Part shown: in pieces, positions 2,739 to 31,924 of the stretch | How the letters are laid out: each line of letters opens with the position of its first letter | Position numbering within the stretch: the first letter of the stretch is position 1 | Origin: a virus | Taxonomy: Duplodnaviria; Caudoviricetes | Virus record (IMG/VR): IMGVR_UViG_3300042527_000337 | Location: 1-31,924 of that record | Reading direction: 5' to 3' (one strand) | Length of the DNA stretch: 31,924 nucleotides | Translations under genes and position numbers: made by a program | Notes under the pieces: model-generated | Database searches by the model: none | What the model was told of the DNA's origin: nothing | What the model saw: the letters and a program-made list of their open reading frames with translations, nothing else

Positions 2739-3719
2739 TCAGATGAACTTATTTCGGAACACGTCGCTTAGGTCGTCGAGCGAGGACGTCTGCCTGTAAC
2801 GGGATTCTGCCAACTTGGCTTTGACGACGTCAGGCTTTTTGCTCTGGGGCGTCGGCATAGACGAGGTGGTCGGCTGAACGGGTACACGCTGGGACATCTG
2901 GCCAGTCTTGGCCGCAGTCTTCTGCTGTTGATACGACACCATGCCAGTGGCAAGATGAGCGGCGTAGATTTCGTAGTCAGGGAACTTGGTGACCTCAGGG
3001 ACGGCCTCAATGAAACGCTTGGCCATGATGGCCCGCTTGTCAGAGGGGTCGTTGAGCCACGGGAATTCCTTGCGAGCGGCGGCTTTGAAGGCCTTGCTCT
3101 TCTCCACGTAGTCTAACTGCTTAGGCAGGAAATCCTCGGTGGCACGGATGGCGTTGACCTTGGCCTTCGCAATCTGCTCCTTGTCGATGGGTTCCTTGCC
3201 GTCTTCGTAGTATCCGTCAGGGTAACGTTCGCAAAACAAGCGAATTTCCTTCTGCCTCTCGTACTCGGCCTCGATTTTTTCCTCCGTATCCAGTTTGCCG
3301 AAAGGGTTGTTGGCATTCTGGGGAGTGGCCTGACGACGCTTGAGAGACTCAAGTTCTTCCTCTAGTTTCTTTGCACGTTCCTCAGCCTCTTTCCGCTGGG
3401 CGGTCAACTTGGAGATACGCTTGTCAACACCCTTAGGTGCGACCTGCTGAGGCTCTTCGTCTTCCTGCTCTTGCGATTCTGCTTCGGTGTTCTCGGTTGC
3501 GACTTCGGCCTCATCTGAGAGGGCCTCGTCCACCTGTTCCTCAGGTTCAGCAGTCTGAGGTTCTGCTCCTTGCGGGCCGTCTGCAAGGGCTCGCCCAAAG
3601 AATTGGGTGAGTTTTTCATCATCGGCGAGGTCGGCGGGCTCGCTCTGTTGTGCCATGAGCGGATTAATCTCGGGCTCAAGTCCGAGAGATTCGGTGTTAT
3701 CCGTGTTTTCAGGTTCCAT
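2739..3719 (-). CDS. Capsid scaffolding protein
   Basis: Acidic disordered N-terminus followed by a GVDKRISKLTAQRKEAEE coiled coil; lies between portal and capsid. Confidence 0.8.
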   Translation of the reverse strand: MEPENTDNTESLGLEPEINPLMAQQSEPADLADDEKLTQFFGRALADGPQGAEPQTAEPEEQVDEALSDEAEVATENTEAESQEQEDEEPQQVAPKGVDKRISKLTAQRKEAEERAKKLEEELESLKRRQATPQNANNPFGKLDTEEKIEAEYERQKEIRLFCERYPDGYYEDGKEPIDKEQIAKAKVNAIRATEDFLPKQLDYVEKSKAFKAAARKEFPWLNDPSDKRAIMAKRFIEAVPEVTKFPDYEIYAAHLATGMVSYQQQKTAAKTGQMSQRVPVQPTTSSMPTPQSKKPDVVKAKLAESRYRQTSSLDDLSDVFRNKFI

Positions 3720-3795: not shown

Positions 3796-4062
3796 TCAGC
3801 CGTTTTGAGTGGGATTGACCTGCTTTCCTTCCCTGACCTTGTTCATCAGGTCCCTGTTAGCCTGAAACAGCCTCAGCATGTCGTTCATGGCTGAGATTCT
3901 TCCGCTGTAGTACGCTCGCTCTTCGCCGACGACTTTTGCCTCCATGACCCTGATGAGGTCGTTCTGGAAGGTTTCGTCGGTCAGGATTAGCACGGCTTTG
4001 TACAGGGCCTCGGCATCGGCGTTGGCGAAGCCGAACGCTTTGGTGTTTTCGTCTATTTGCAT
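3796..4062 (-). CDS. Small portal-downstream protein (88 aa)
   Basis: ORF with a C/A-rich leader (TCCACCACC-ATG); ERAYYSGR..A..D helix typical of the small gene after P22-like portals. Confidence 0.65.
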   Translation of the reverse strand: MQIDENTKAFGFANADAEALYKAVLILTDETFQNDLIRVMEAKVVGEERAYYSGRISAMNDMLRLFQANRDLMNKVREGKQVNPTQNG

Positions 4063-4071
4063 GGTGGTGGA

Positions 4072-6321
4072 TTAAATCATGCCCATTGACTGGAGCGGAG
4101 AGGGGACGCCGCCCTGAGGGGGAGGAGCCGCCTGCTGGGGGGCTTCCTGCTGGGGTGCCTGTTCGGCCATAGCCTCGCCCATTTCTTGCTGAATCTGCTC
4201 GGAGGCAGGCGATACGCCGATACGGCCGATGGTCTTGTTCTTCTGTTGCTCGACGGACATCTGCAGGTTCTTGGAGTAGTTCTCCAGCAGAATCTGGAAG
4301 ACCCTGTCTCCCTGAGCGGCCTGAGCCGCCTTGGGGTTCTTCTGGAGGATTTCCTGAAGGTACTGCATCTTGGACTCGGCGGCTGGGTCGTTCTCCACGT
4401 AGAGGGCCTCATTGCCAAGCATCATCATGCCGACGTCGTTGATGACGTCCTTATACAGTTTCTGAGACGCAGTGGTCTGGTCGATGACCAGTTCCCTAGC
4501 GGCGTCAGGCGAGATGGCCTCGATGACCAACTTGACCAACTTGTTCCTGTCGATGACGCCGCCGCTATCAAGCGGCACCACAGTCTCGACGATGGATTTC
4601 AGTTTCTCCATGACGAACTCAGGGTCGGTGTCACGTACGTCAAAGCGTACGTTGAAGTCATACTGGCTATGGATGTCGGACATGTTCTGCTTGAGCGGGG
4701 CACCAGTGATGCGGGTGACCTCTTCCTCGGGCATGTACTGAAGGCACAGGGAGAACAACTGCTTGTAGGTCTGGGTCCAGAACTGAAGCCAGTTGTTTAC
4801 CTGCAACTGTTGCATCATGCGTACCTTGTTAGGGTCGATGGTCTCGCCGACGATGAAGCCGTAGAAGTTTCCAAGGTTTGTTTCAATCTGCTGGATGATG
4901 CTGATGGCGTACTCAGCCTTGCCCTGCGGAGGCTCCATCCAAGTGTAGTCATCCTTGGTGGAAACTGGAAGCACCTGTCCCGGAGCAATCCTATTCAAAG
5001 CACCCACTCGCTTGACCACTTTTACGGGCGGCATGATTTCAAGTGCGGTCCTGTCACGGAACGCATCGTGCTGTGCCTTGACTTCGTCCTGTTCGGTCTT
5101 GGAGATTTCTGGGATGCCTCGGCTTTCCGTCACCTGACGGCGGGTCATTTCGAACCTGATGGACACGAAAGGGTACTCGCCATGGGCGTAGTTCAACATG
5201 TCTTGGATGGCGTACATCTCGTTTCCTACGTGAGGGGAGAACACAGTGTAGTAGATGGATGCGATGTCGTTTTCGTCCAACTGCCTGTAGTACGCCCAGA
5301 CCACCTCGATTAGGTTGTCTCCACGCTGAACGTTAGAGTTCAGCATCGTCGTTGTCGGGATTAGGTTCGGGTCGTTGAAGTAGAAGTGGTTGCCAGACGT
5401 CTTTACTGCGGCCTCAATGAACTCAGGGTCCCATCCAGCGTTCTTCTGCATGGAGCGGAGTTCGACTTCCGTCATGTACTGCCTGCGGAAGATGACACGG
5501 GCCTCCTGAAGGTCGCTCGTCTCAGGCGGGAAGCAAACTTCGTCGAACGGCTTGAGTGCGGTCACCTTGGGAAGGTTCTTCTGGATGTAGACTTCTTCCA
5601 GTTCGCCCTGACCTTCTTCACGCATTTTGGTGACGAACTTGCGGATGTCTTTCTGCTTCATCTGGGGAAGCACCTGCTTGCAAAGTTCGATGGCGTACTC
5701 CTCCTTCTGCGGATTTTGGATTGAGGCAATGAGTTCGCCAGTGACTCCGCCCTGACCCATAGCCTCTTCCTGCTGTTGCACTGCCATGAGTTCTTCCATG
5801 GTCATGGTCTGACGCCTGATGCCGATTTTCCTATCCCACGTAATTTGGGCACAGCACCATCCGTAGGTAAGCATGTAATCGGCGACCAGTTCTGCCTCCC
5901 TCTGCATCTCCGACTTGAGTTTTGTCTCAACCAGCCAACGCATGAGGTTGGTGGCAGAAGACGCCGCCATGGCGTCATTGACCTCGGTTCCGCCGACCTT
6001 GAGGGTCGAAGCGTTGTAGGAGGTCATCAGCATGGCCTTTTGGTCACGGATGAGCCTATCGACGAGCCTTACACGGACGTCAGAGGCACCTTCGAACGGG
6101 AAGGCGGGGTCGCCATCGGGGCGGGCCCAAGAGTGCTTCTTGCCGTCGTCGGTCTGGCCAGCCCAGCGGGCGTAGCGGACGTCGTCGGCCCACGACATCT
6201 TAGACACCATGGTGCCATGGTAGGCGGACCTCTCGTATTCGGAGAGAAGCGTCTGGATGTCTGGCTTACGCTCGTGGTAGGCCAGAGGGTCACTACCGAC
6301 CTTGTTAAACTTGTTTTTCAT
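4072..6321 (-). CDS. Portal (head-to-tail connector) protein, P22-like
   Basis: 749 aa; position after terL; YAHGEYPFV...ESRGIPE motif; Gln/Pro-rich C-terminal tail. Confidence 0.85.
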   Translation of the reverse strand: MKNKFNKVGSDPLAYHERKPDIQTLLSEYERSAYHGTMVSKMSWADDVRYARWAGQTDDGKKHSWARPDGDPAFPFEGASDVRVRLVDRLIRDQKAMLMTSYNASTLKVGGTEVNDAMAASSATNLMRWLVETKLKSEMQREAELVADYMLTYGWCCAQITWDRKIGIRRQTMTMEELMAVQQQEEAMGQGGVTGELIASIQNPQKEEYAIELCKQVLPQMKQKDIRKFVTKMREEGQGELEEVYIQKNLPKVTALKPFDEVCFPPETSDLQEARVIFRRQYMTEVELRSMQKNAGWDPEFIEAAVKTSGNHFYFNDPNLIPTTTMLNSNVQRGDNLIEVVWAYYRQLDENDIASIYYTVFSPHVGNEMYAIQDMLNYAHGEYPFVSIRFEMTRRQVTESRGIPEISKTEQDEVKAQHDAFRDRTALEIMPPVKVVKRVGALNRIAPGQVLPVSTKDDYTWMEPPQGKAEYAISIIQQIETNLGNFYGFIVGETIDPNKVRMMQQLQVNNWLQFWTQTYKQLFSLCLQYMPEEEVTRITGAPLKQNMSDIHSQYDFNVRFDVRDTDPEFVMEKLKSIVETVVPLDSGGVIDRNKLVKLVIEAISPDAARELVIDQTTASQKLYKDVINDVGMMMLGNEALYVENDPAAESKMQYLQEILQKNPKAAQAAQGDRVFQILLENYSKNLQMSVEQQKNKTIGRIGVSPASEQIQQEMGEAMAEQAPQQEAPQQAAPPPQGGVPSPLQSMGMI

Positions 6322-13164: not shown

Positions 13165-13204
13165 GGGCTTGCCCTTGGAGCGATGAGATACGATGTTGTG
13201 GTCC

Positions 13205-13672
13205 ATGGCAAACAAACGCACGTCGGCTAACAGACAGAGAACGACTAAGAAGCAGGCCAACCCGCTTCGTCGCAAGTATGGTGTGAGCGGTGTCGAATCG
13301 TTCATTGAAGCACATAAGAGAATCAACGATGAGCAGGTCAACACTATGTTGATGCTGGAGCCAAGAGAGTGGTGCGACTACGCATGCGTAGGTGTGGCTG
13401 AGGATGTGATGGGCTCACTCAGGTGCGTATATGACCTGAACATACTGGAGCATGCGTATGCGTTGTCATATGCGTACTCGGAATTCGGATACGACAGTAT
13501 CGACAAACTAATTACACACGCCACGCCTGAGCAGTTCGACATGGCACAAGAGTGGGTATCCTATAACACATTACGTGCGGCACCTCACATGGGAGCCAAC
13601 TCACCTCTGTTCATACGCTCTCATGACCCCAAAAAGTGGCAGACGGACGCAGAATGGTGCAAAGATTGGTAA
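13205..13672 (+). CDS. Conserved phage hypothetical protein
   Basis: D.ACVGV...VYD...A.EWVSYNT.RA.P.MG...P.F pattern recalled from aquatic phages. Confidence 0.7.
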   Translation: MANKRTSANRQRTTKKQANPLRRKYGVSGVESFIEAHKRINDEQVNTMLMLEPREWCDYACVGVAEDVMGSLRCVYDLNILEHAYALSYAYSEFGYDSIDKLITHATPEQFDMAQEWVSYNTLRAAPHMGANSPLFIRSHDPKKWQTDAEWCKDW

Positions 13673-13721: not shown

Positions 13722-13749
13722 TTGACGCACGACTACGAATAGTCATGTT
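13722..13749 (+). promoter_or_regulatory. Candidate sigma70-like early promoter with an inverted repeat in the spacer
   Basis: TTGACG-16 nt-CATGTT; spacer contains GACTA-CGAA-TAGTC; followed by hairpin CATGGTG/CACCATG (13755-13775) and the RNA cassette. Confidence 0.45.
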
Positions 13750-13788
13750 GATGGCATGGTGATTAACGCACCATGTTCTTTAACACAC

Positions 13789-13865
13789 GGGGATGCCTAG
13801 TAGGCAATGCGGCAGTTCAAATGGCCACGACACATGCAGGGGTGCAATCCCCCTTATCTCCACCA
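13789..13865 (+). ncRNA. tRNA-like RNA with alanine acceptor identity (G3-U70, A73, CCA) but non-canonical D and anticodon arms
   Basis: Acceptor GGGGATG/TATCTCC-A-CCA; T arm AGGGG-TGCAATC-CCCCT; 77 nt; the central 42 nt do not fold into standard D and anticodon stems. Confidence 0.6.
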
Positions 13866-13871
13866 CCTTAT

Positions 13872-13947
13872 GGTGTCCATAGTCCAATGGTTAGGATACT
13901 GCCTTGTGATGGCAGGGATACGGGTTCGATTCCCGTTGGTCACCCCA
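13872..13947 (+). tRNA. tRNA-His (GUG)
   Basis: Full cloverleaf: encoded G-1 opposite C73, acceptor GTGTCCA/TGGTCAC (one mismatch), D arm GTCC/GGAT, anticodon arm CTGCC-TTGTGAT-GGCAG, T arm ACGGG-TTCGATT-CCCGT, encoded CCA. Confidence 0.95.
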
Positions 13948-13952
13948 TTTAT

Positions 13953-14030
13953 GGGTCATACTTGCAGATAGGGCAGTTCTCCAATCACAGAGCACTAGAA
14001 CGCTCGCCCTCTGGCATTACAGACCCTCCA
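13953..14030 (+). ncRNA. Putative 78-nt rod-like hairpin RNA ending in TCCA
   Basis: Nested pairings GGGTC/GACCC, TGCAG/CT(G)GCA, AGGGC/GCCCT and GTTCT/AGAAC; 3' overhang TCCA; same size and spacing as the two preceding units. Confidence 0.45.
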
Positions 14031-14052
14031 CTTTCCACCCAAACACACACAC

Positions 14053-14151
14053 ATGAATAAACAACAAATCAGCACCCTCTGGGTCGTCGCCCTCATCATC
14101 GACACGGCTACTCTCGTAGCCCTCTGCGTGACCATCGGCCTCATCTGGTAA
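14053..14151 (+). CDS. 32-aa hydrophobic membrane peptide (MNKQQISTLWVVALIIDTATLVALCVTIGLIW)
   Basis: Translated by hand; preceded by the phage's typical TTTCCACCC-AAACACACACAC leader. Confidence 0.65.
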   Translation: MNKQQISTLWVVALIIDTATLVALCVTIGLIW

Positions 14152-14198
14152 TGCTAGCCCCTTCGGGGGCCCACTTTATAACCAACCACACACACAAC

Positions 14199-14510: not shown

Positions 14511-14717
14511 ATGAAGAATAAGTACAAGTACATCAAGCGTTCGGCCATAAAGGCCCTCGCCAAATCCAAGGGCAAGCGTGTCTCTGAACAGTTCCTGCTC
14601 ATCCTCGACGCCTTCATCAGCAAAAAAATCTGCATCGCCTGTGAGACGCACAACGGGGGCCGCAAGACCCTCAAGGGCGACCTAGCGGTCATGATTGGGT
14701 TAGCCAGCAGGTTCTAA
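14511..14717 (+). CDS. Histone-fold protein (prokaryotic short-alpha2, Bd0055/HMf-like)
   Basis: alpha1 IKRSAIKALAKSKG, loop 1 KRVS, alpha2 EQFLLILDAFISKKICIACETHN, loop 2 GRKTLKGD; matches the HMf-type ERVS and GRKTIK landmarks; (CA)n leader. Confidence 0.72.
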   Translation: MKNKYKYIKRSAIKALAKSKGKRVSEQFLLILDAFISKKICIACETHNGGRKTLKGDLAVMIGLASRF

Positions 14718-14990: not shown

Positions 14991-15033
14991 GTTGACGACT
15001 GCCCCGAAAGGGGCACAACCTTTCACCGCACAC

Positions 15034-19412: not shown

Positions 19413-19420
19413 TCCACTTT

Positions 19421-19492
19421 GGCCTTATCGTTCAACGGATAGGACAGGCGTTTCCTAAACGCTTAATCTAGGTTCGATTCCTAGTAGGGCCA
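19421..19492 (+). tRNA. tRNA-Arg (CCU), decodes AGG
   Basis: Acceptor GGCCTTA/TAGGGCC, D arm GTTC/GGAC, anticodon arm GGCGT-TTCCTAA-ACGCT, T arm CTAGG-TTCGATT-CCTAG; CCA not encoded. Confidence 0.93.
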
Positions 19493-19521
19493 AAACCTTT
19501 CCACCCAGCATACGCACATAC

Positions 19522-20842: not shown

Positions 20843-21135
20843 TTGGTACGGACGATTCGGCGGCGAATGACCTCAAGAATTTCAGAAGTAAACGTTCCGA
20901 CAACGCTGTAGATGACGGCCTCATAGATTGGAGGCACCATGTCATGAACAATGAAATAAGCAATTATGCCGATGATGGCTCCAGCAATGGTACGCCTAGT
21001 CCACACCACCCAACTGTGAGCCTCGTCGCTGACCAGCAACCTGACCAAAGCACCAAGGGCTCCGAGGGCGGCCATGAGCCAGCCACCCTCCTTGAGGTCT
21101 TCGACAGTCTTAGTTAGATTCGGGTCTGGGCTCAT
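20839..21135 (-). CDS. Putative holin (2-3 TM segments)
   Basis: 98 aa; G.LGALVR...W......GAIIG pattern; basic C-terminus IRRRIVRTK. Confidence 0.7.
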   Translation of the reverse strand: MSPDPNLTKTVEDLKEGGWLMAALGALGALVRLLVSDEAHSWVVWTRRTIAGAIIGIIAYFIVHDMVPPIYEAVIYSVVGTFTSEILEVIRRRIVRTK

Positions 21136-24100
21136 CTCGCTTCTGGCCTCTGCCTGCGGTGTAGAACTTGTACATCTCCACGGCCTGCTTGGTCATGGCT
21201 TGATTGGAGTCCACGCCTCGGAGGGACATGAACGGGATGCCTTGGACAATCATCTTCTTGGCTTCTGCCACGTGATTGGCGTTCGGGTACTTGGGCCTGA
21301 TGACGAGCATCGGACCAGTGAAGCCGACCATCCTAGCCGTCGCCGCCGCAACTTCGTCGGCACTGCTGGTAGCCCTTAGTCCCATGGCATGCATGGCCAC
21401 GGAGTTTTCCATGGCCGTAGAGGCAGGGTCTCCAGAGTCAGGTCCGAACAGTCCGTGCACGGCGTCTTCCCTGTTCAGGCCCATGTTGGTCCCTTGCTTC
21501 ATGAAGTCTTCCGTCGGCGTCTTAGAGCCGAACGAAGTGGTCATCTGGTTCTGCAAGTTGCCCGACTCGGCACCAGCCATGCCGCCAGCAATGGTCATTC
21601 CACCGAACGCCACCTGCCTGCCGCTGGACCTAGCGTCCGCAGTAGAGAACAACTTGTTGGACATGGTCTGGGCCATCGACGAGGGCCCGTGTCCAGTCAG
21701 CATGAACGCTTCCATGGCATAAGCACCCATTCCCTTGTACGACTTCAGGAAGTTAGAGACGATGGGCACGGCACCAAGATACTTGGCGTTTTGAGCGGCC
21801 TTCTCTTGAGCCTCGTTGAATGACACGATGCCTTCGGCGATGGGCTTTCCAGTCTTCTTGTCGATGATGGAGTACTTTCCGTCGACCATGATGATGTCAG
21901 GCGTCTCAAAAGCGTCATGCGACACCTGATTGACGAGGGCGTCATGCATGCCTGCGTAGTAGATTTTGTTATGCCACAGCGGTGCACCATAGTTTGTGGC
22001 ATATCCGTGGGTCCTGCCTACGGGAACGCTGAGGAACACGCCCTGAGGCTTGGCGATGTGGGTAGCCACACGCTTGGCGACGTCGGCTCCGTCCGTGATG
22101 CCAGACGACTTGATTTGCTCGAAGATGCTTTCGGGGGTCCTTGAGCCAGACCTCGTAGCCTTCACGAGTCCTTTGAGGGTCGCTTGGCTACTGTCCCTGT
22201 AAGTATTCGAGTGCTTGAGGGCCAAGTCGATGACGGACTTCACAGAAGCCCTCATGCCTATGGCCGTCTTGCCCGAGGTGAACATGGGAAGTTCGTCGAT
22301 GATTTCCCTAGCAGACTCCATCAGGTGGTCTTCAAGAAGGCCCTCTACGTTGTTCCAAGTAATCTTTTTCTCATTCGAAAGGAACTGTTCCGCATCGGGA
22401 ATCTGGTGCAGGTTTCCGTTGTGCAGTGCCTCAAGGAATCCTCCGTGAGTGGTACGCTTCTTGGCTTCATGCATGATGTAACCAGCCGCCATGAACTCTG
22501 AGTACTTGAACCCGCTGATGTTAATAGGGGCGATGATGCCTCCGCCTAGGTTGAACAGGCCGACGATGTTCCTGTTGGAGTCGTAACGCTTCCTGTGATG
22601 GCGGGCGTCCATGACCACGAGGGCGTCTTTTCTGTTCTGCAGTGCCCTCATGACATACCAGTTGGTCATGACGCCACGATAAGCACCATCTTCGCCGAGA
22701 GGAATGGTGTCTGGGTATGTGAAGGCGTCGGAGTCCACCTTGCCCACCAAGGCCTCAATCTCTACGATACGTGCTTTCGCCTTCTCCATGACTGGGTCGG
22801 GAACATTGGCACGATAGACAGACACGATGGCGGCGGCGTTCATTTCGAACATCTTGCCGAGAAGCGTCCTAGACTCGGTATGCTGTGAGCCACGAGCCCT
22901 TGATACGGGGTTTCCGCTGGTGTTGTCGAAGTCGATGTCGACGGCCTGAATTACCTTCATTCCGTAATCACCAAGGCGGTCAAGTTCGGGGAAAGTAACT
23001 TCCTCTGGCTTGGTGAGAACCTTAAGAAAGGTCTCATTGATGTAACTCCTAGCAGAATCCCTCTTGGCCATGAGTTCAGCGGCTTGCTCGGCAGTTACGC
23101 CAAGAACCTGTCCAACGAGCCTGATGTCCATGGCGACAGCCTGTGCGGGAGTCAGTTCGACAAAGTTGTAATCCATGTAACGCATCTTCGCCATGAGTTT
23201 CCTCTGGTTCTGCACGATGTCGTCAGGAGATATGCCCAACTCGACCAAGTCTTCCATGCGGACATACCTTTCAATGTTTGAGGCAATGTTGGTAATCCTC
23301 TGGCCCTCAATCCTGTATGGACGCTTGTAATCTACTCTAATCTCGCTGGCATAAGCGGCCTCTGGTTGCCACGGCTCATGAATCTTGGAATGCAAGTCAC
23401 GCTTGTTCCTGAAGTCGGTCAGCAGGTGTGCGGGCTCATAGTACAACTCCTCAGCCCTTTTAATGCCGATGAGCGTTTTCATCTTCCACTCCCTCACTTG
23501 GTCGGTGCGGGCTTCGAAACGTTCGACCCTACGCCTGAAGTCCAGAAGAGACTCTAGAGCAATTTTGTCGAAGTTGACGCCATGCTTTGCGGCATCGTTG
23601 TAATCCAACTCGTTCTTGTAGTACTCGCCAAGCCAATCAAGTTTGCCCATGAACTCTGGGTTGAACTGAAGTCCGACGGAAGCGATGTACCTGACGAGGT
23701 TGTCCGTGCTGTTCTCGGACATGTAGTGCCAGTAGTTGTCCAGAGTGGTGGCGGCTAATCCCAAAACTCGCCCCATGCCGAATCCGTACACTTCTCCCAT
23801 GGCTCCGTAGTGCAACTGTCCGCTTTCGGCTTGGTGGACAAGTTCGAGCATGGACTCGTGAAGTGCACCCTCGTACTTTTCGGTGAAGACGACAGTGGGT
23901 ATGTTGTTGTCCTTGAGGCCGTACTTCTTTGCGGTGTCTGGAGATACCTTGTGGGTCTTTTCAAAGTCCAGAACGATTCCGTTTTCTTCGCCGACTAATC
24001 CCTTGTTGATGGCGACTGCGTAAAGCAAGAACGGCGTGGCCTTCCTGATTTCCCTATCAGCGATGACACGCCTGATTACAGTCTTGTGCTTGGACTTGAC

Positions 24101-27100
24101 GCTGGACTGGACGTACTTGAGCGGGTCTGCGACGGACTCCAGCCTGTCCCTCTCGGCCAGAACCTGCTCCCTGAGGGTCTTGAGTTCTGCGAACAACTTG
24201 CTGTTTTCGACGGACTTGAAGTCAGAGCCAAGGAATGCGTCTGGCTGAGGGCCGAACGTCGAGCCTTGGTACCTGTCTGACTGTAGTTCCTCAATGCCAA
24301 GTGCGGCGATGGTATCACGGCTCATGGACAGGGAGTTGCCCACCTCGGTGAGGTTGGCGTTCGCCCTGTGGTACGCAGTGACGATGACGTCGCTGTGGCG
24401 GGCGTGGCCAAGTTGCATGGTTCCACGGGGCGTGTTCTTGTGGCCAGAGTTGGCCATCCTGCTTTGGGCGACGGACTTGACCTTCATGATTCGCTCAATG
24501 GAGGCAATCTGCATGTCCAGCCTAGCGGCTTCTTCGGCGTTGTCTCCCACCCTTTCTCTCATCCTCTTAAGGTTGGCGATGTAGGCATTGGCCTTCTCAA
24601 GGCCCATGGAGGTATGTAGGGTGTCCCATCCGTACTGACCCACGCCACTGGTATAGCCAGCATAGTCTGGCTGGCCAGCGTTGTACTGAATGTTGTACGG
24701 GTACGCCTCCAAGTCAGCCTGAGGGAAGACATTCCTGTTGGTCTTGTTGCCAAGGCCGATGACAGGCTCTGCTTCGCTGGCACCCCAGTCGTTGATGACG
24801 TCGAGGTGCGTGGTGCTTGACCTGAAGTCTGGGATTTCGAAATCAAATCCAGCAAGCCTGCCGACGGCTTCAAGCCTAGCCTTGGCAAAGGCGTCATTGA
24901 AAATGTGCCTGTAAGTTTCAAGGACAGGCTCCGAAATTACTTCGCCAGCACCTTTAGGCCGCACGAAGTTTTCGTTGTCTACGCTGAGTGCCTCGGTTTC
25001 TGCCGTCTTCCTCGGGTATTCCTTGGACGCACTCTCAAGGATGGTCTTGGCCCCTTCTGGGCCAGCCTCGACCATCTGCTTGGCGGCTTCCTTTTCGTAG
25101 AACTGTTCGAGGGCGGTCCTGAGAGCCTCGTCGTGCATCTTCCTGACAGTGGCAAGATAAGCCACCATCTGGCCCTTTTCTTCCTCGGCGGCGGATTCAA
25201 TCTCTTCCTCAATTAACCTGAGGTGTTTCTCACGCTCCCTGTGGAATCGGGTTGCGGCAGAGGCGACTGCCTTGCTGGGGGAATTGACCCTAGCGAGGTA
25301 AGGAGAAGCGGGCATCTCGTCAGCCCTGCGGCCAGTCTGCGGGTACATGGCCCACAGGAACTTGGCCACCTCCATCTTGGTCAATTTGTTGTCCTTGTTG
25401 TCGTAAAGAAACTCGGCAAGACCAAGCACACGCATTTCATTCTTGGAAACTGCGTTCTCGACGAACATCTCGTACCATTCGTTGCCCGTGGCGACCTCGA
25501 CGGCCTTCTTGACTTTCTTGGTGGCACCATGCTTGTTCTTCTCCAGCATGGGAACAAGAGCGGTCCTGAGGACGTTAAGGGCCCTAGGTGCGAACTGGAT
25601 GTAGGAACCTCCGATGCCGAACTGCAGGCCACGCCTGATGTCGTGCTCGAACTGTCCGACGCCACCAGTAGAAAGACTGACGCTACGCCTCTGAGGGGCC
25701 TTGCCAGTGATAGACTCAGGCTTGAGCAACATAGCCTGTGCGGCCTGTGCGGCGGCTTTGGTGTCGAACGGAGTGTCGATGTTGCCTACGTAGAACTTGC
25801 CGTCATTGGCGTACACACGGGAGGTTTCAGTCTTACCCTTGGTGATGAACTCGTCCGAGACAGCAAGCCCAGCATATACGTCGGCCTTGCCGCTCTTGGG
25901 TCCGTAAGCCTTCTCGGCTTCATGTTCGGTAAGTTGATACTCGCCCTCCCTGAACAGGGCGGCGGGCACTTCGGCTTCGACGCCGCCAGCAAGCACGCTG
26001 TCCCTGTACTTGTTCGCTTCCGCTTCGGTCCTGAATGCCATTACCTTTCTGGTCTTGCTGACCATGCCAGCCTCGGTGACGCCAGAAACTACGTCATGGC
26101 CCACCATGTATCCGCTCTTGTCGCTCTTGCGAATAATGGTCAGGTTATGCTTCTTGCTGGAATCCCAAGCGTATCTTTCAAGGTGTGGCTGGTCTGGCAT
26201 CAGCATGCCGATGACGGCAGACCTGTCTCCGTTCATGGCGATGCCACGCTCGACGTCAGGCATGTAGTATCCGCTGTCGCTGGAAGTAAGCCTTTCGCTA
26301 AGCCTGCCGATGTCAGACAGGAGTTGCGGATTGTACATGACCAACTGATTGGCGACCCTGTTGACCTCGGCGGTCGGGTCGTATCCAGAGTGGGCAACTT
26401 CCGACACCCTGTACCCCTTGAGGGCTGGCATGCCGCCCTCTTTGGGTGCGGCAAGGGACTGCTCTTCGTGCATCTTGAGCATCTTCGTGAACGAAATGAC
26501 GTTGTCTTGGGACATCGCCCCACCCCAAGACAACTGGCCAGCCCAAGGGTTGTCTGACTCTCCCCTCCTGAGGTAGTGCTCCATCCTCATGACCTGTTGC
26601 ATCTTGTCCTGATTCTTCAAGGCCATGCCGTGGTAAGCCGCCATGGTGAAGTAAGCAGTCTGAATGTCTTCGAGCGTTGCGTTCTTTGGCAGGATAATGG
26701 TGCTGTAGGAATTCTCTGGAGAACTGGACATGAGCAAGTCGCTCAGGTCAGTGTACTGGCCTACGTGCTCGGAGTTACTCAATTCAAGGGAGGCAAAATC
26801 AAGTGCGTCACTTCCCTCCCTAATCTTGGCAATCGACTTTACGCCTTGGCCGAATTTATCGGGCGAGAGATGGGAACTGACTCCAGACACACGGGAGTTT
26901 CCGCCAAGCCTTCCGAGGAGGGCTCGCTTAGCCATGGACCTAGCGGCCAGTTCATGCTGTCTGAGGACTGGGGCTGAACTGAAATCCATTAACTTTGCGA
27001 CGCTCGCTTGAATGGCACCCGCCTTGTTCTTGAATTCGGTAGAATAGGTTCCGAAGATGGGGAGTGCGTGGTGAGCGGACTGCGGAATGAGCGTCTTGCT

Positions 27101-30100
27101 CTGAACGTCCCAGCCAAGCGTACGCCTATGGGAATAGCCAAGGGCGTTCACGTAATTGTCGCTGAAGATGCCGTCGTAGTATCCGCTGACATCCGTATTC
27201 GGAGAGATGTTCAGCATGATTCTTCCGTCCTCCAGCCTAGTCCAAGCGAAACCAACCTTGGGCTTGTCCCTTTCTGCCGCTATTGCGGAGTCGAACGGCA
27301 TGCCGCTCCAAGAGTTGCTTTGCACGTGGCCTGCATAGAATGCGTCAGCACGGCGGCTTTCATTCGGGAGTCCGACGTAGTTCAAAGACTGCCTCCTTGC
27401 CGCACTGAACCTAGCGGGCTGTACCGACAGGGTCTCTTTGCCCATGGCAGAAGCGATGGAAGCGAGCCTGCTAACAATCAATTCCCTGCGTACCCTGCTG
27501 GACACGTTTGCCTTCCTAGTCTTAAGGCTAAGTGCGTATTTGCCTCTGCCCGTAGTGCCTACGGACAGGGTTTTGTCCAGAGTGTCCACAAGCCAAGCAT
27601 CCTTGACTCCGAACGAACCCTGAGTGTCGACGTATTCGTTTTCTAAAGCCTGTCGGGTGGCCATCTCAGTGATGGCGGTGTGCATGTCTACTTCTTCTGG
27701 GCGTACCCCAGTGACATATCCAGTGCCACGCTTGATGGCGGCCGCTTCGGTGTCCTTGAAAGCAACCCTACTGTTATTTCCGCCGAACAATGAACCGATG
27801 ACTGGGTCATGGCCGTCCGAAGATTCAAGGTCAATGGAATCGACATCCATTCCGTAGGACTTCGAACGACGTTTCTTTTCTAGGTTACGCCTGACCTTCA
27901 GAATGGGCTCTTGGCCTTGTACAGTGACGGCAAGTTTTCCGTCCCGCCTGTAAGCATGCGGCCTAGGACTGCGGGTCTTGGTCTTTTTCATGGCGGCGAC
28001 GCCGAAGAAATAACCACGCCAGAACTCTTGGTCTATGCCCTGAGAAGAGATTTGCTCGCTGACGTATTTGATTACTTCTGCAGGCAGGCCCTGCTTGGCC
28101 TGAGTTTTGTAGATTTCGCTGTCTCCGTACAGGTGGTCGTAGCCATAGGTGGCACCTTCGTCTACGGCCCTGATGAACTCGGCAGACCTTTCAGGCCTGA
28201 CCTTTGACATCTTCACGCCCTGAAGGACGTTCAGCCTTAGCATGACTCCGTCAACTGCCTGCGTGGAAGAGGACTCGTACAGCAACCTGCTTAGGTTGTT
28301 CTTGTCCACCATCAGGAACCACTGGCTCAGAAGTTCGTTGAATGCGTTAGCCTGAGCCCTGTCACGCATGTCGGCGGTCTCGGCCATGGCCACCAATTCA
28401 TGGTATGGTCCGACATCAAGGGTGTTACGGACGTTCATTATGTGCCCTTCCTTGGCTTCTGCGAAGCCGATTAGGTCATGGGACAGTACGTAGGGGGCGA
28501 CAAGGTTTCCTAGGACGGCTCGGTTAATCCTCATGCCTTGCGGATGAAGGACGGGGTCTTGGCTTTGACGCCCCATGTTGTCGAACACTCCGCCCGTGTT
28601 GTAGTCGGCCTGAATCTGGTCACGCCTATTGGACAATGCCCACTGGATGAGGGATTCGCCTCCTGCGTCATTGTGGAGAGAAGCAAACACGTTCTGGCTG
28701 AGGAACATCGTGCCATCCAGAATCTTTTCGATGTTGGAAGGAGGGGCCTCAAGGATTCCTTCTGCGTTGTAAATAGACCTCGTGATGAAATCCATTTCCA
28801 CGTCATACCTCATGGACGGGGTGATTGTCGGCTGAGTGGCAGAGGGGGACTCAAAGATGGAGCCGCCGTACATGCCAGTGACCTTCGCCTCCATATTGAA
28901 CGCCCTCTTATTGGCCTGAAGGACGACGTGCCTAGGAACGGCATTGGAGGTATTGAAGGACTCCAGAGTGACGGAAGTGGGTGCGTCAGAGTCTGCCAGT
29001 GCCACGTCCACGTCGACGAACGAATCCTTCCCGTGGGTGATAATAGAGACGCCAGTCGTGTTGGTCCTTCTGGTGGAGCCCGTTCGAATCATGGAGCCGA
29101 AGTCTATGAGCCCAGACTGGTGTGCACCCTGTTGCTGGTAAAGTGGGTGCAACGGGCTTACCGCCCTGAGTTCGTCTAACTGCATCTGCATCACCTTAGC
29201 CATGTCGGCGTAGCGGGCCTTATGTTCGGCCTTTCTGACTTCAAGCCTGTCGGCAAGGGCTTCGATTGACTGCTCCTTTGTTAAGCCAGCCGCAACGCCC
29301 TTTTCGAACTCCTGCTTGACGAAGGTTCCGTAACTGTAGTCGTCAAAATCAAAACTGCTGTCGCTTAGGTAGTTCTTGAAGCCATTGACCTCGTCAATCA
29401 TGCGTTCGATGTTCAGAAGCCCTTCTTCACCGACTTCGATTGCCTCCTGAAGCCTAGTAGCGATGTTGCCAATCGAGTCTTCGGTGCTCCAGTTGTTGTG
29501 AAGCGTGGACATCTGGAACGAAATTGCCTCCGCTCCGCCGTCCTTTATGACGCTCCTGATGTTCCTGTCCGCACCTACCCTGTCCAAGTAACTAAGGTTT
29601 CCATACGCCGTAATCTCGGCGGACGTACGATTTCCGCTGGGCTGGAACTCAAGTCCAGTCTCAACACGTGAAAATCCAGTGTTTGCATCAGACATTTCTC
29701 CGAGGTGCTGGAGCATGAAGCCGCCAGCAAGTGTCCTAAGTGACGGCATGTTTGGGTTGGAGAACGGCAACTGATAGGTCTCACCCCTTCCCGTTCCTCC
29801 TAGGTCCGAACTATCTGACAGGATTGATGTCTTGCCGTAGATTCTGTTCAAGCCGCCTTGGATATAACTGCCAGACACGGAGCCCGAGACGGCACCAATG
29901 TAAGAAGGCTTGGTTTGGTTTGACGTTTCTTGTGCACCAATGCTTTCCCAAGGAGTCGTTCTGATGAGGGACTTTTCAATTTCAGTCAGCATCAGCAGGG
30001 CAATCTTTGACTTGATGCTCCTGTCCTGTTCTCCCACCCTGAGCATGTTGTCCGCAAAAGCCTCAAGCATCGGCTTTATCATGTAGGACATACGCTCGAG

Positions 30101-31924
30101 CCTGTTGTTAAGTTTTCTTACTAGGTCCCTGTTGCTCGTAGAGCCTCCGACATTCTCGATGGTCTCACGCTGGAACCTAGAAGACAGGCCCTTTGCTATG
30201 CGGCTTTTGATTTGTGCGACAGCGGCCTTGTCAGCCTCTCCGTGAATGAACGTTTCGAGAGACGGCACGGAGAACTTGTATTCGGTTCCAGTAAGAACGA
30301 ACTTGCCAATGACGAAGTCCTTAGACTCGTACGAAAAGACCTGAGTCGAGTTATCGCCAATCATGGTACGCTCGGCAAAAGCCCTAGAGCGGTCACCAAA
30401 TGCCTTAACTAACTTCTGGGCGTTTTCGGTTTCCTTGGACCTAGCCATTACTTCTGGGCTTACAACCTCACCGATGCCGAATCCTTTCCTAGAAGAGGAA
30501 TAAGGAAGCCTAGTCTGATGGTGGTTATAGGCGAAAATGTTCAGCAGGTCATTCTTAGTAAGGACCATGTCCTTATCCAGACTGCTGACCACCCTGTTAA
30601 GGAGAACGGCATCGGCCGCTTCCTTGCTGTACTTCCTGTCTCCTTCTCCAGAAAGAAGCCCCATGACTTCACCGACCTTGAACATCGGCGGGAATTCGTC
30701 AGACGCCACCAAGTCCATCAACGAGTTTCCAAGAGACAGGACGTCTTCGGAGGCGACCTTAGCACCAGCAATTTCCAAGATTTCGGCCATGGTGTAGGTG
30801 CCGTTTTCCTTGGTCTCGAACGGGACGACGTAACTGTTGCTTTCGGACCTGTCGTATTTGTCATACTGGTGCAAGGTGCCGAACTTTTGACTGAACCTAC
30901 GAACGGCGGCTTCATAGTCTCCTTCGACAATGTAGTTGCCAGTCTTGAGGGTGATTCGGCCGTCTTCGACAGCCCAGCCACGCTCAGAGACAACGAACCT
31001 GTTGAGCATTGTCAGTTCATCCGAGGCACGGGCCAAAATGTGCCTTACCAGCGATAGTTTGCCCATCATGGCAAAGCCTTGGCTGTCTTCGGCCTTTTCG
31101 CCTATGCCGCCGATGGACTGCATGACGACATGGACTGGGTTGCGTCCTCCAGCCTCGAAGGCGTCAAGCCCCCTAGTCTGCCCTTCCATGAGTTGAGAGG
31201 GGGTGATGACGTCAGACTTGCCGATGGCGTTAGAGATGATGGCCATCACAGAACCTTCGGGCAGGATGTCGGCCGTGTACTTCCTAGGCTTTTCGGCGAG
31301 TTCGCTCTGAGTAAGCATACGCCTGTCCTCGGTCTCACGGGCCATCCGTTCCTCGGGCCTGATGAGGTAGTTGAGGTCGATGTAGTCCTCTAAGGACTGC
31401 CTGATAAGGAGTGCCCTCTGCTCGGGCGTGGAGTGCTCCATGGCCACGACGCTCCTGACAAGTCCTAGTGCGGACGTAGCGGCCCTGAATTCGACGTCAA
31501 AGTGAGACTTGATGGAGTACTGGGCATTGGTCCTTCTGACCTTCTCCCTTATCTTCATCATGTTCTTGTAAGCGGAAAGGTACTCAGAAGGGGACTCGGC
31601 CCTGCCGACCTCAGCCTGCAGGTCTAGCACCTTCTTGGCGATTTCTCTGTCAATGCGGCCAGCGTCAGCCTCAGAGGCAATGATGCCCGCAAAGTTCCTC
31701 ATGGCGGTCTTCATAAGGTGACCTGCCCTCATGTTGAGATGCCTGACTACTGGAGATTCGTTTGCCAAAGCCAGCCTGTTGGCAAGTTCTCCGACGTCAC
31801 GGGCGGCGGTCTTGTCTGCGTCAGACCATAGGCTGTCGGCGGCGATGCTCTTTCCGATTTGCTCGGACAGCGAGAAGTTACTCCTGATGCCAAGCAGGTT
31901 GGCGTAATGGCCGAGCACGACCTC
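21110..31924 (-). CDS. Giant virion internal/ejection-type protein, >3600 aa, 5'-truncated
   Basis: Uninterrupted 10.8 kb ORF open to the window edge (GAG GTC precedes the GTG); no Cys seen; H.R...IEELQSD motif; located at the end of a late operon before the lysis genes. Confidence 0.75.
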   Translation of the reverse strand, partial: EVVLGHYANLLGIRSNFSLSEQIGKSIAADSLWSDADKTAARDVGELANRLALANESPVVRHLNMRAGHLMKTAMRNFAGIIASEADAGRIDREIAKKVLDLQAEVGRAESPSEYLSAYKNMMKIREKVRRTNAQYSIKSHFDVEFRAATSALGLVRSVVAMEHSTPEQRALLIRQSLEDYIDLNYLIRPEERMARETEDRRMLTQSELAEKPRKYTADILPEGSVMAIISNAIGKSDVITPSQLMEGQTRGLDAFEAGGRNPVHVVMQSIGGIGEKAEDSQGFAMMGKLSLVRHILARASDELTMLNRFVVSERGWAVEDGRITLKTGNYIVEGDYEAAVRRFSQKFGTLHQYDKYDRSESNSYVVPFETKENGTYTMAEILEIAGAKVASEDVLSLGNSLMDLVASDEFPPMFKVGEVMGLLSGEGDRKYSKEAADAVLLNRVVSSLDKDMVLTKNDLLNIFAYNHHQTRLPYSSSRKGFGIGEVVSPEVMARSKETENAQKLVKAFGDRSRAFAERTMIGDNSTQVFSYESKDFVIGKFVLTGTEYKFSVPSLETFIHGEADKAAVAQIKSRIAKGLSSRFQRETIENVGGSTSNRDLVRKLNNRLERMSYMIKPMLEAFADNMLRVGEQDRSIKSKIALLMLTEIEKSLIRTTPWESIGAQETSNQTKPSYIGAVSGSVSGSYIQGGLNRIYGKTSILSDSSDLGGTGRGETYQLPFSNPNMPSLRTLAGGFMLQHLGEMSDANTGFSRVETGLEFQPSGNRTSAEITAYGNLSYLDRVGADRNIRSVIKDGGAEAISFQMSTLHNNWSTEDSIGNIATRLQEAIEVGEEGLLNIERMIDEVNGFKNYLSDSSFDFDDYSYGTFVKQEFEKGVAAGLTKEQSIEALADRLEVRKAEHKARYADMAKVMQMQLDELRAVSPLHPLYQQQGAHQSGLIDFGSMIRTGSTRRTNTTGVSIITHGKDSFVDVDVALADSDAPTSVTLESFNTSNAVPRHVVLQANKRAFNMEAKVTGMYGGSIFESPSATQPTITPSMRYDVEMDFITRSIYNAEGILEAPPSNIEKILDGTMFLSQNVFASLHNDAGGESLIQWALSNRRDQIQADYNTGGVFDNMGRQSQDPVLHPQGMRINRAVLGNLVAPYVLSHDLIGFAEAKEGHIMNVRNTLDVGPYHELVAMAETADMRDRAQANAFNELLSQWFLMVDKNNLSRLLYESSSTQAVDGVMLRLNVLQGVKMSKVRPERSAEFIRAVDEGATYGYDHLYGDSEIYKTQAKQGLPAEVIKYVSEQISSQGIDQEFWRGYFFGVAAMKKTKTRSPRPHAYRRDGKLAVTVQGQEPILKVRRNLEKKRRSKSYGMDVDSIDLESSDGHDPVIGSLFGGNNSRVAFKDTEAAAIKRGTGYVTGVRPEEVDMHTAITEMATRQALENEYVDTQGSFGVKDAWLVDTLDKTLSVGTTGRGKYALSLKTRKANVSSRVRRELIVSRLASIASAMGKETLSVQPARFSAARRQSLNYVGLPNESRRADAFYAGHVQSNSWSGMPFDSAIAAERDKPKVGFAWTRLEDGRIMLNISPNTDVSGYYDGIFSDNYVNALGYSHRRTLGWDVQSKTLIPQSAHHALPIFGTYSTEFKNKAGAIQASVAKLMDFSSAPVLRQHELAARSMAKRALLGRLGGNSRVSGVSSHLSPDKFGQGVKSIAKIREGSDALDFASLELSNSEHVGQYTDLSDLLMSSSPENSYSTIILPKNATLEDIQTAYFTMAAYHGMALKNQDKMQQVMRMEHYLRRGESDNPWAGQLSWGGAMSQDNVISFTKMLKMHEEQSLAAPKEGGMPALKGYRVSEVAHSGYDPTAEVNRVANQLVMYNPQLLSDIGRLSERLTSSDSGYYMPDVERGIAMNGDRSAVIGMLMPDQPHLERYAWDSSKKHNLTIIRKSDKSGYMVGHDVVSGVTEAGMVSKTRKVMAFRTEAEANKYRDSVLAGGVEAEVPAALFREGEYQLTEHEAEKAYGPKSGKADVYAGLAVSDEFITKGKTETSRVYANDGKFYVGNIDTPFDTKAAAQAAQAMLLKPESITGKAPQRRSVSLSTGGVGQFEHDIRRGLQFGIGGSYIQFAPRALNVLRTALVPMLEKNKHGATKKVKKAVEVATGNEWYEMFVENAVSKNEMRVLGLAEFLYDNKDNKLTKMEVAKFLWAMYPQTGRRADEMPASPYLARVNSPSKAVASAATRFHREREKHLRLIEEEIESAAEEEKGQMVAYLATVRKMHDEALRTALEQFYEKEAAKQMVEAGPEGAKTILESASKEYPRKTAETEALSVDNENFVRPKGAGEVISEPVLETYRHIFNDAFAKARLEAVGRLAGFDFEIPDFRSSTTHLDVINDWGASEAEPVIGLGNKTNRNVFPQADLEAYPYNIQYNAGQPDYAGYTSGVGQYGWDTLHTSMGLEKANAYIANLKRMRERVGDNAEEAARLDMQIASIERIMKVKSVAQSRMANSGHKNTPRGTMQLGHARHSDVIVTAYHRANANLTEVGNSLSMSRDTIAALGIEELQSDRYQGSTFGPQPDAFLGSDFKSVENSKLFAELKTLREQVLAERDRLESVADPLKYVQSSVKSKHKTVIRRVIADREIRKATPFLLYAVAINKGLVGEENGIVLDFEKTHKVSPDTAKKYGLKDNNIPTVVFTEKYEGALHESMLELVHQAESGQLHYGAMGEVYGFGMGRVLGLAATTLDNYWHYMSENSTDNLVRYIASVGLQFNPEFMGKLDWLGEYYKNELDYNDAAKHGVNFDKIALESLLDFRRRVERFEARTDQVREWKMKTLIGIKRAEELYYEPAHLLTDFRNKRDLHSKIHEPWQPEAAYASEIRVDYKRPYRIEGQRITNIASNIERYVRMEDLVELGISPDDIVQNQRKLMAKMRYMDYNFVELTPAQAVAMDIRLVGQVLGVTAEQAAELMAKRDSARSYINETFLKVLTKPEEVTFPELDRLGDYGMKVIQAVDIDFDNTSGNPVSRARGSQHTESRTLLGKMFEMNAAAIVSVYRANVPDPVMEKAKARIVEIEALVGKVDSDAFTYPDTIPLGEDGAYRGVMTNWYVMRALQNRKDALVVMDARHHRKRYDSNRNIVGLFNLGGGIIAPINISGFKYSEFMAAGYIMHEAKKRTTHGGFLEALHNGNLHQIPDAEQFLSNEKKITWNNVEGLLEDHLMESAREIIDELPMFTSGKTAIGMRASVKSVIDLALKHSNTYRDSSQATLKGLVKATRSGSRTPESIFEQIKSSGITDGADVAKRVATHIAKPQGVFLSVPVGRTHGYATNYGAPLWHNKIYYAGMHDALVNQVSHDAFETPDIIMVDGKYSIIDKKTGKPIAEGIVSFNEAQEKAAQNAKYLGAVPIVSNFLKSYKGMGAYAMEAFMLTGHGPSSMAQTMSNKLFSTADARSSGRQVAFGGMTIAGGMAGAESGNLQNQMTTSFGSKTPTEDFMKQGTNMGLNREDAVHGLFGPDSGDPASTAMENSVAMHAMGLRATSSADEVAAATARMVGFTGPMLVIRPKYPNANHVAEAKKMIVQGIPFMSLRGVDSNQAMTKQAVEMYKFYTAGRGQKRDEPRPESN

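Follow-up and report, generated by a model that had tools for sequence, protein, structure and literature searches.

Comparison with related loci indicates that the cassette at positions 13789–14030 of a virus record of 31,924 bases (the window, by which we mean this whole stretch of DNA) is a real feature and a richer one than first described, because it appears to hold two new conserved RNA folds within a swappable array of small RNAs led by a boxA-type site. We put this structural and operon part, a boxA-led small-RNA array with conserved folds, at a probability of about 0.9. A preliminary description of the DNA had reported three units of 77, 76 and 78 nt, each starting with GG, pairing its two ends and finishing in NCCA, with spacers of 6 and 5 nt that both end in TTAT, and checking the sequence reproduced all of this in the window. 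Moreover, the three units do look like one co-transcribed stable-RNA cassette, as had been proposed. The features, all on the plus strand, are as follows.

13193–13672, plus strand: 159-aa hypothetical ORF, the upstream anchor for gathering related loci
13722–13749, plus strand: probable promoter (TTGACG at 13722–13727, −10 element uncertain)
13755–13775, plus strand: leader hairpin at the boxB position, which folds in 31 of 31 cassettes
13775–13785, plus strand: putative boxA-type NusB/NusE site, matching GYTCTTTAANA
13789–13865, plus strand: unit 1 (77 nt), predicted alanine-acceptor tRNA mimic without an anticodon
13872–13947, plus strand: unit 2 (76 nt), canonical tRNA-His(GTG)
13953–14030, plus strand: unit 3 (78 nt), pseudoknotted long hairpin
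14053–14151, plus strand: 32-aa hydrophobic ORF, which closes the cassette in most relatives

Only the middle unit had been expected to be found by tRNA scanners, and ARAGORN and the Rfam tRNA model indeed called tRNA-His(GTG) alone (61.9 bits on the Rfam model, against a cut-off of 29). This unit has G-1, C73 and an encoded CCA, and standard annotation here reports that one tRNA and misses the other units.

The shape by which the units had been picked out (GG, 74–79 nt, at least 5 terminal pairs and NCCA) is by itself weak evidence, with 8 matches on the plus strand of the window, 2 of them in the cassette. In fold energy, unit 1 was no better than its shuffles (z = +0.5) and unit 3 gave z = −2.4. 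Because the shape test is weak and unit 1 is no stabler than shuffled sequences, relatives were collected by means of the upstream protein, DNA patterns and DnaC. Thirty-one cassettes were parsed, namely that of the window and those of 30 loci, one of them cut short; a further locus (L001), identical to the window across the region, was left out of the counts, and 53 more loci came from DnaC relatives. Conservation with compensatory changes in these relatives is what, by sequence comparison, raises units 1 and 3 above chance. The preliminary description had staked both units on conservation and covariation in related phages, and because both are conserved and covary there, it stands at the sequence level.

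Genomic setting and leader of the array

The minus strand of the window encodes SU10-type capsid, portal and adaptor proteins and a terminase, and the plus strand encodes exonuclease VIII, an O-like initiator, a DnaC-like loader and Erf; near-complete related genomes are 46–49 kb long. The cassette opens the series of small plus-strand genes and is placed between the 159-aa ORF, which has no Pfam or PHROG family, and the 32-aa hydrophobic ORF, whose relatives follow the cassette in related loci on by-eye inspection. No relatives of the upstream ORF or of the capsid protein were found in GTDB. An Opitutales bin was considered as host and rejected as too weak a link, with a 36% DnaC match and only DnaC and RusA in common. 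A 95-aa ORF spanning the cassette (13773–14060) was also rejected, since no plus-strand frame is open across any of the 29 other full cassettes (that of L030 is cut at 74 nt and is thus not among the 29). Contigs from two runs of one sample cover coding and non-coding parts alike, and this coverage is uninformative on expression or RNA ends.

The preliminary description had placed an early promoter ahead of the cassette, and this was borne out in part. With a deliberately loose pattern, a TTGAC element was found 52–63 nt upstream of the boxA-like site and hairpin in all 31 cassettes, but no match to a sigma-70 consensus promoter was found between 12500 and 15500. The leader hairpin folds throughout and its stem sequences differ between lineages. 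The leader site, 3 nt upstream of unit 1, is the sole match to GYTCTTTAANA in the window, where 0.04 were expected; this boxA consensus (PMC5725501) was derived for gamma-proteobacteria. Among the cassettes the consensus is exact in 11/31, and a looser form is present in 19/31 compared with 4% of random 200-nt stretches. Nus factors may either block or promote Rho termination, according to the passages cited of that paper.

Several other elements were noted elsewhere in the window. A conserved GC hairpin follows the 32-aa ORF (14157–14171), and ahead of the exonuclease gene (14992–15020) there is another conserved TTGAC with a GAAA-capped hairpin behind it. The 68-aa basic ORF at 14511–14717 (plus strand) probably encodes a histone fold; its nearest named Atlas clusters are CBFD_NFYB_HMF (feature score 0.89, TM 0.68, a lead only), and it gave no significant PDB sequence match. 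A tRNA-Arg(CCT) without encoded CCA follows the Erf gene (19420–19493, plus strand), and a tRNA-Arg is present at the post-Erf site in many relatives as well. On the minus strand, 21110–31918 is a 3602-aa ORF with no Pfam family.

Two conserved RNA folds

Units 1 and 3 had both been called non-canonical. Both are conserved, but for unit 1 the term needs narrowing, as it is strongly tRNA-like and lacks the decoding arm only. Its parts in the window are as follows.

13789–13795 with 13855–13861: acceptor stem, followed by A73 (13862) and CCA (13863–13865)
13796–13805: D hairpin, with AG at 13799–13800
13806–13809 with 13833–13836: 4-bp helix
13811–13826: inner hairpin with variable loop
13828–13832: invariant CGACA
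13838–13854: T-arm

We found 13 distinct unit 1 sequences, of which 12 were aligned and one (from L107) is an extra copy outside model building. By structure, the order is acceptor stem, D hairpin of 2–3 bp, 4-bp helix, asymmetric CGACA loop, inner hairpin with its loop, a connector of 1–2 nt and T-arm, with no 8/9 linker between acceptor and D hairpin. G1-C72, G2-C71, G3:U70 and A73 are invariant in the 12 aligned sequences, and CCA is encoded in 11 of them; G3:U70, the main identity element of AlaRS (PMC5389517, PMC3985003), is kept in 13/13. Both sides change in acceptor pairs 4–7 and in one T-stem pair, and the 4-bp helix has compensatory changes at two positions. Overall, 97.4% of cells are paired, a value reached by none of 500 shuffles, and slid controls gave 50–71%; acceptor pair 7 is open in 4/12 and the first T-stem pair in 6/12. 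The inner hairpin and its terminal loop differ in length and sequence among copies, and because this loop is not conserved, unit 1 has no anticodon. In the same arm the CGACA bulge is invariant.

The D-loop and T-loop of unit 1 change together: AG goes with UGCAA in 10/13 and GG with UUCGA in 3/13, and no mixed combination occurs (0/13). Canonical tRNAs of the collected loci follow this rule too: of 130 distinct ones, 126 combine GG with U55 and 4 combine AG with G55. This pattern agrees with the tRNA elbow, formed by G18-U55 and G19-C56 (PMC10424219), and we regard the covariation as the strongest sign in the sequences that unit 1 would adopt an L-shape. On the tree of the upstream gene, however, as few as 2 changes account for the elbow switch, and just 1 of them is forced by well-supported branches (L107 is not in this tree).

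Run over 33 sources, a covariance model of unit 1 gave 20 copies with scores of at least 66.9 bits, and the best match below these scored 32.3 bits. L107, the one copy among the 53 further loci, scored 41.3 bits (E 4e-7), is 64% identical to unit 1, and keeps G3:U70, CGACA and the GG+UUCGA elbow. Measured against a tRNA, unit 1 has the 7-bp acceptor, the 5-bp T-stem with 7-nt loop and the G18/G19-type elbow; it lacks the U8/N9 linker, the 4-bp D stem and the variable loop of 4–5 nt, and in place of a 5-bp anticodon stem with a conserved 7-nt loop it has an interrupted arm with a variable loop. Neither ARAGORN nor the Rfam tRNA model called it. Cellular homologues were sought in GTDB genomes, where all 19 pattern matches were true tRNAs or chance. 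An antisense role within the window was rejected for both units, the longest perfect complements being 11 nt (unit 1) and 10 nt (unit 3), which is chance level.

Unit 3 is a different structure, with these parts in the window.

13953–13957 with 14022–14026: terminal stem, followed by the tail (14027–14030)
13958–13962 with 14017–14021: conserved 5x5 internal loop
13976–13980 with 13997–14001: pseudoknot
13990–13993 with 14002–14005: apical stem

Thirteen distinct sequences were compared. The fold has 25 pairs in four helices, and 15 of the 25 change on both sides, including all 6 terminal-stem pairs and 2 of the 5 pseudoknot pairs. The pseudoknot, which links the apical loop to the preceding internal loop, was also selected independently by RNAalifold. 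Pairing reaches 97.2%, again as high in 0/500 shuffles, with slid controls at 29–46%, and the internal loop reads AYAYU opposite UYAYA in 13/13. The preliminary description of unit 3 as a unit that starts with GG and ends in CCA did not carry over to the relatives: the 5′ GG is not fixed, and the tail has U in 12/13, then C in 13/13, CC in 9/13 and CCA in only 3/13, which suggests a processing signal made of a stem plus NCC, and not the end of a tRNA. With no T-loop and a terminal stem of 5–6 bp, unit 3 is not tRNA-like. Its covariance model matched in 16 of 33 sources and in none of the 53 further loci.

Exchange of units among relatives

Three units in a row are present in the window, but this is one arrangement of many. 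The 31 cassettes comprise 28 distinct ones, in which the order of modules changes freely; the TTAT spacer end is not general either, occurring ahead of unit 3 in only 2/13. The tRNAs found in this slot vary with the relative (His, Ala, Pro, Tyr, Met, Trp, Cys, Asn, Phe, Arg, Val or Lys), and at least 7 other recurring RNA modules, absent from the window, also occur in it. Unit 1 is present in 20/31 cassettes and a second type, U1b, in 6/31, and the two never occur together. Because unit 1 is found in 1 and unit 3 in 0 of the 53 further loci, both are accessory. Alanine enrichment among the phage tRNAs is not claimed (11 of 130 distinct tRNAs).

U1b looks like a second alanine-acceptor mimic; it has a UGC loop, lacks a variable loop, and its anticodon arm is long and bulged or interrupted (L035:2970–3047, L036:3062–3139, L037:2404–2481, L051:3129–3206). 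Just after it in L035 (~3050–3155) there is an RNA of ~105 nt with acceptor, T-arm, CCA-like end and a long non-tRNA interior. Module U4 (~70 nt) folds into a four-way junction that bears a GNRA tetraloop; it often occurs in tandem and sometimes ends in ACCA (L002:4879–4947; L005:5001–5141, two copies; L007:1690–1758; also L006, L022, L027, L029, L046 and L060). Its covariation is weaker (4/16 pairs, 0/500 shuffles), and it has no Rfam match. Module U5 (~75 nt) has three hairpins, no Rfam match and a conserved internal loop that we take to resemble a GNRA-tetraloop receptor, and it might dock with U4 (L003:4944–5021, L007:1456–1532, L029:3270–3352; also L031, L045, L046, L048 and L060). Odd tRNAs or tRNA-like units, missed by ARAGORN or weak in Rfam, were seen in L031 (~3100–3250), as the first tRNA of L029, L046 and L060 and as the first unit of L034 and L049, and the cassette of L053 has odd units and no called tRNA at all. 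A sister lineage (L086, L088, L093, L098 and L100, ~3850–4850) has a longer folded leader, a boxA-like site, a tRNA-Arg(ACG), another recurring module and, in most members, U4 and U5, with no unit 1 or unit 3.

Possible roles and related systems

In the mechanism that we favour, early transcription from the TTGAC promoter, helped by Nus factors, would yield the array as a single precursor, and RNase P cuts at the terminal stems together with 3′ trimming would release separate RNAs, namely a working tRNA-His, the alanine-type mimic unit 1 and the pseudoknotted unit 3. Host AlaRS would alanylate unit 1 through G3:U70 and A73, EF-Tu would bind the product, and the result would be a charged, non-decoding RNA. 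Effectors directed at tRNA tails or acceptor stems recognise the acceptor end, T-arm and elbow, and unit 1 would offer them these surfaces without being of use in decoding; unit 3 would bind a protein or a small ligand via its conserved internal loop and pseudoknot. The preliminary description had raised a role as decoys for tRNA-targeting defences or as regulators. We likewise propose a decoy role for units 1 and 3, directed at anti-phage proteins of the host, because unit 1 keeps the surfaces that effectors read, has lost the decoding arm and sits among rapidly exchanged tRNAs, and we rate this as close to an even chance, slightly on the lower side. Cas12a3 contacts the T-arm and the acceptor stem with CCA (PMC12851939). 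The CCA end and acceptor stem are also what toxSAS enzymes recognise, and phage-encoded tRNAs serve T5 phages in countering the retron and PARIS defences (PMC11559606). Against a decoy role, the phage counter-defence described in the cited part of the latter paper is tRNA replacement, not decoys. A strict alanine identity and an invariant CGACA are needless for a generic CCA decoy and therefore suggest a specific partner.

A wider form of the decoy proposal, which we hold to be unlikely, is that the array is a collection of exchangeable RNA modules against host immunity, controlled by antitermination of the rRNA type. Unit 1 would then be an alanylated, non-decoding decoy, soaking up effectors directed at the tail, acceptor stem or elbow of tRNAs, and unit 3 and the other modules would sponge other defence proteins or immune signalling molecules. 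If this were true, unit 1 would counter a class of defence that ordinary phage tRNAs cannot escape. Passages of the paper on Cas12a3 state that viral tRNAs cannot readily circumvent cleavage of the CCA tail and that other, yet unknown, means are needed (PMC12851939); a non-decoding mimic of acceptor and elbow such as unit 1 is a concrete candidate for such means.

For the specific partner of unit 1, SmpB is the main rival candidate. Here unit 1 would be a remodelled tRNA-like domain (TLD) of tmRNA which would titrate SmpB, or EF-Tu, and obstruct or co-opt the ribosome rescue of the host, a role already suggested for the TLD-only RNA of mycobacteriophage DS6A; we consider this explanation unlikely. 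Unit 1 shares with a TLD the alanine identity, the absence of an anticodon and of a U8/A14 linker, and on the Rfam model for tmRNA its copies score as high as 39 bits (E 4e-12); this score is below the cut-off of 47 bits (RF00023), and a true tRNA-Ala reaches 32.2 bits there. The CGAC of unit 1 echoes the UCGAC of the tmRNA D-region in L009 and in the mycobacteriophage DS6A, and the L009 tmRNA shares with unit 1 the first seven bases and the AG+UGCAA elbow. However, both TLDs examined have UCGAC 5′ of P2, 2–3 nt after GG or AG, and an NNAC connector before the T-stem, whereas in unit 1 an internal loop on the 3′ side of the arm contains the CGAC, the D hairpin is paired and covaries, and the connector is 1–2 nt. 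A TLD-like molecule inhibits tmRNA, perhaps via SmpB titration (PMC4131195), which favours this explanation, and the finding of smpB in none of 5 near-complete related genomes is neutral for titration. Among the closest known molecules is the TLD-only tmRNA of DS6A (described in part of PMC4131195), which like unit 1 is phage-encoded, ~80 nt long and of alanine identity, with a T-arm and no anticodon; unit 1 differs in its paired D hairpin, the position of CGAC, the short connector and the score below cut-off. Unit 1 has G3:U70, A73, CCA and T-arm and no anticodon, as a TLD does, and has neither the unpaired D-region ending in UCGAC 5′ of P2 nor the NNAC connector 3′ of P2. It may work like a TLD or descend from one, and it falls outside the tmRNA and TLD families as judged by sequence.

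A mainly cis-acting role for units 1 and 3, in which they would punctuate processing or stabilise the tRNAs and the downstream early mRNA instead of being free effectors, is distinctly unlikely. The modules are packed between tRNAs with short U-rich spacers, unit 3 directly follows a tRNA or another module, and the terminal stems with N-C-C tails presumably resemble RNase P substrates. Punctuation, however, needs neither a G3:U70 kept in every unit 1 sequence nor an invariant CGACA nor the 5x5 loop; moreover, the cassettes of L034 and L049 carry tRNAs without unit 1 or unit 3, and module order varies freely. About as improbable is the idea that unit 3 is a self-cleaving ribozyme trimming the units of the array, or a free-standing small-molecule aptamer. 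Its apical loop pairs back with the 5′ strand of the internal loop that precedes it, much as in the upper half of the twister ribozyme, its unpaired nucleotides are invariant, and it often lies directly after a tRNA. Against this, Rfam searches of the window (E≤10) and of 20 relatives (E≤1) gave it no ribozyme or riboswitch match, and inspection by eye against known folds showed neither a second twister-type pseudoknot nor an HDV or theta topology.

As an alanine acceptor without an anticodon, unit 1 could also be a private alanine donor for a Fem/MurM- or MprF-type transferase or for mRNA-independent alanine tailing, and its GUGC-type T-loop is of the kind known from staphylococcal non-proteinogenic tRNA-Gly. 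We regard this as very unlikely: FemAB and Acetyltransf_6 are absent from 5/5 near-complete related genomes in which positive controls were detected, and G51-C63, a pair for tight EF-Tu binding that is not typical of dedicated donors, is kept in 12/12 unit 1 sequences. A transferase encoded by the host could still use it. Hardly credible are a UGA-reading suppressor tRNA, for which the loop of unit 1 in the window can be drawn with a central UCA that is not kept in a loop that varies among copies, and TGA ends 11 of 25 ORFs counted, and decaying pseudogenes or chance folds, which the poor fold energy of unit 1 would allow but which the compensatory changes in both units, exceeding every shuffle, contradict.

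Small non-tRNA RNA genes within a phage tRNA cluster have a precedent in rnaC and rnaD of T4, classed as late and of unknown role in the passages cited (PMC3014915, PMC9697503), whereas the present array heads a presumed early region behind boxA in a ~48-kb phage and has many swapping modules. Allo-tRNAs and irregular-tRNA polycistrons (PMC5389517, PMC7609411) are likewise non-canonical, some with G3:U70, and lie near toxin-antitoxin genes; the allo-tRNAs described there are built on an 8/4 or 9/3 branch and have anticodons as well as a long variable arm. Unit 1, by comparison, is 7/5 (6/4 in some copies) with a 1–2-nt connector and no anticodon, and with neither an 8/4 or 9/3 branch nor a long variable arm its assignment to the allo-tRNAs was rejected. 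In rrn-type leaders boxB precedes boxA. As in such leaders (PMC5725501), a hairpin and then an exact boxA stand directly ahead of untranslated RNA in the window; here the leader precedes phage small RNAs, boxA is exact in only 11/31 cassettes, and the Nus site is a prediction. The mascRNA and menRNA (PMC10424219) are also compact, tRNA-like and CCA-ended, and are released from longer precursors as unit 1 presumably is, but they are eukaryotic and not aminoacylated, and one unit 1 copy gave only 13.4 bits (E 8.9) on their Rfam model.

By Rfam 15, in which neither reaches the cut-off of any family, and the literature searched, units 1 and 3 appear to be new families of known kinds, namely extra RNAs in phage tRNA clusters, TLD-only RNA and irregular-tRNA polycistrons. 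A blastn search against 50,697 phage records gave no match covering unit 1 or 3 among the 20 matches listed, and no description of either type was found in literature that lies largely outside subscription journals. Neither unit had a match in the portion of the set of Fremin et al. 2023 (PMC10690425; 10,006 candidates) that was compared, namely passages of the main text and 4 of the 9 supplementary files, so that both may be listed there. The two families offer structures backed by covariation and a series of natural variants, with a clear split between conserved parts (acceptor, elbow and CGACA in unit 1, pseudoknot and 5x5 loop in unit 3) and freely varying ones, which together make the role of such RNAs directly testable with transcripts of 70–80 nt. 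As a separate observation, the viral contigs L008 and L009 carry at 1430–1829 a two-piece (permuted) tmRNA with the tag ANDNGSIALAA and an AG+UGCAA elbow.
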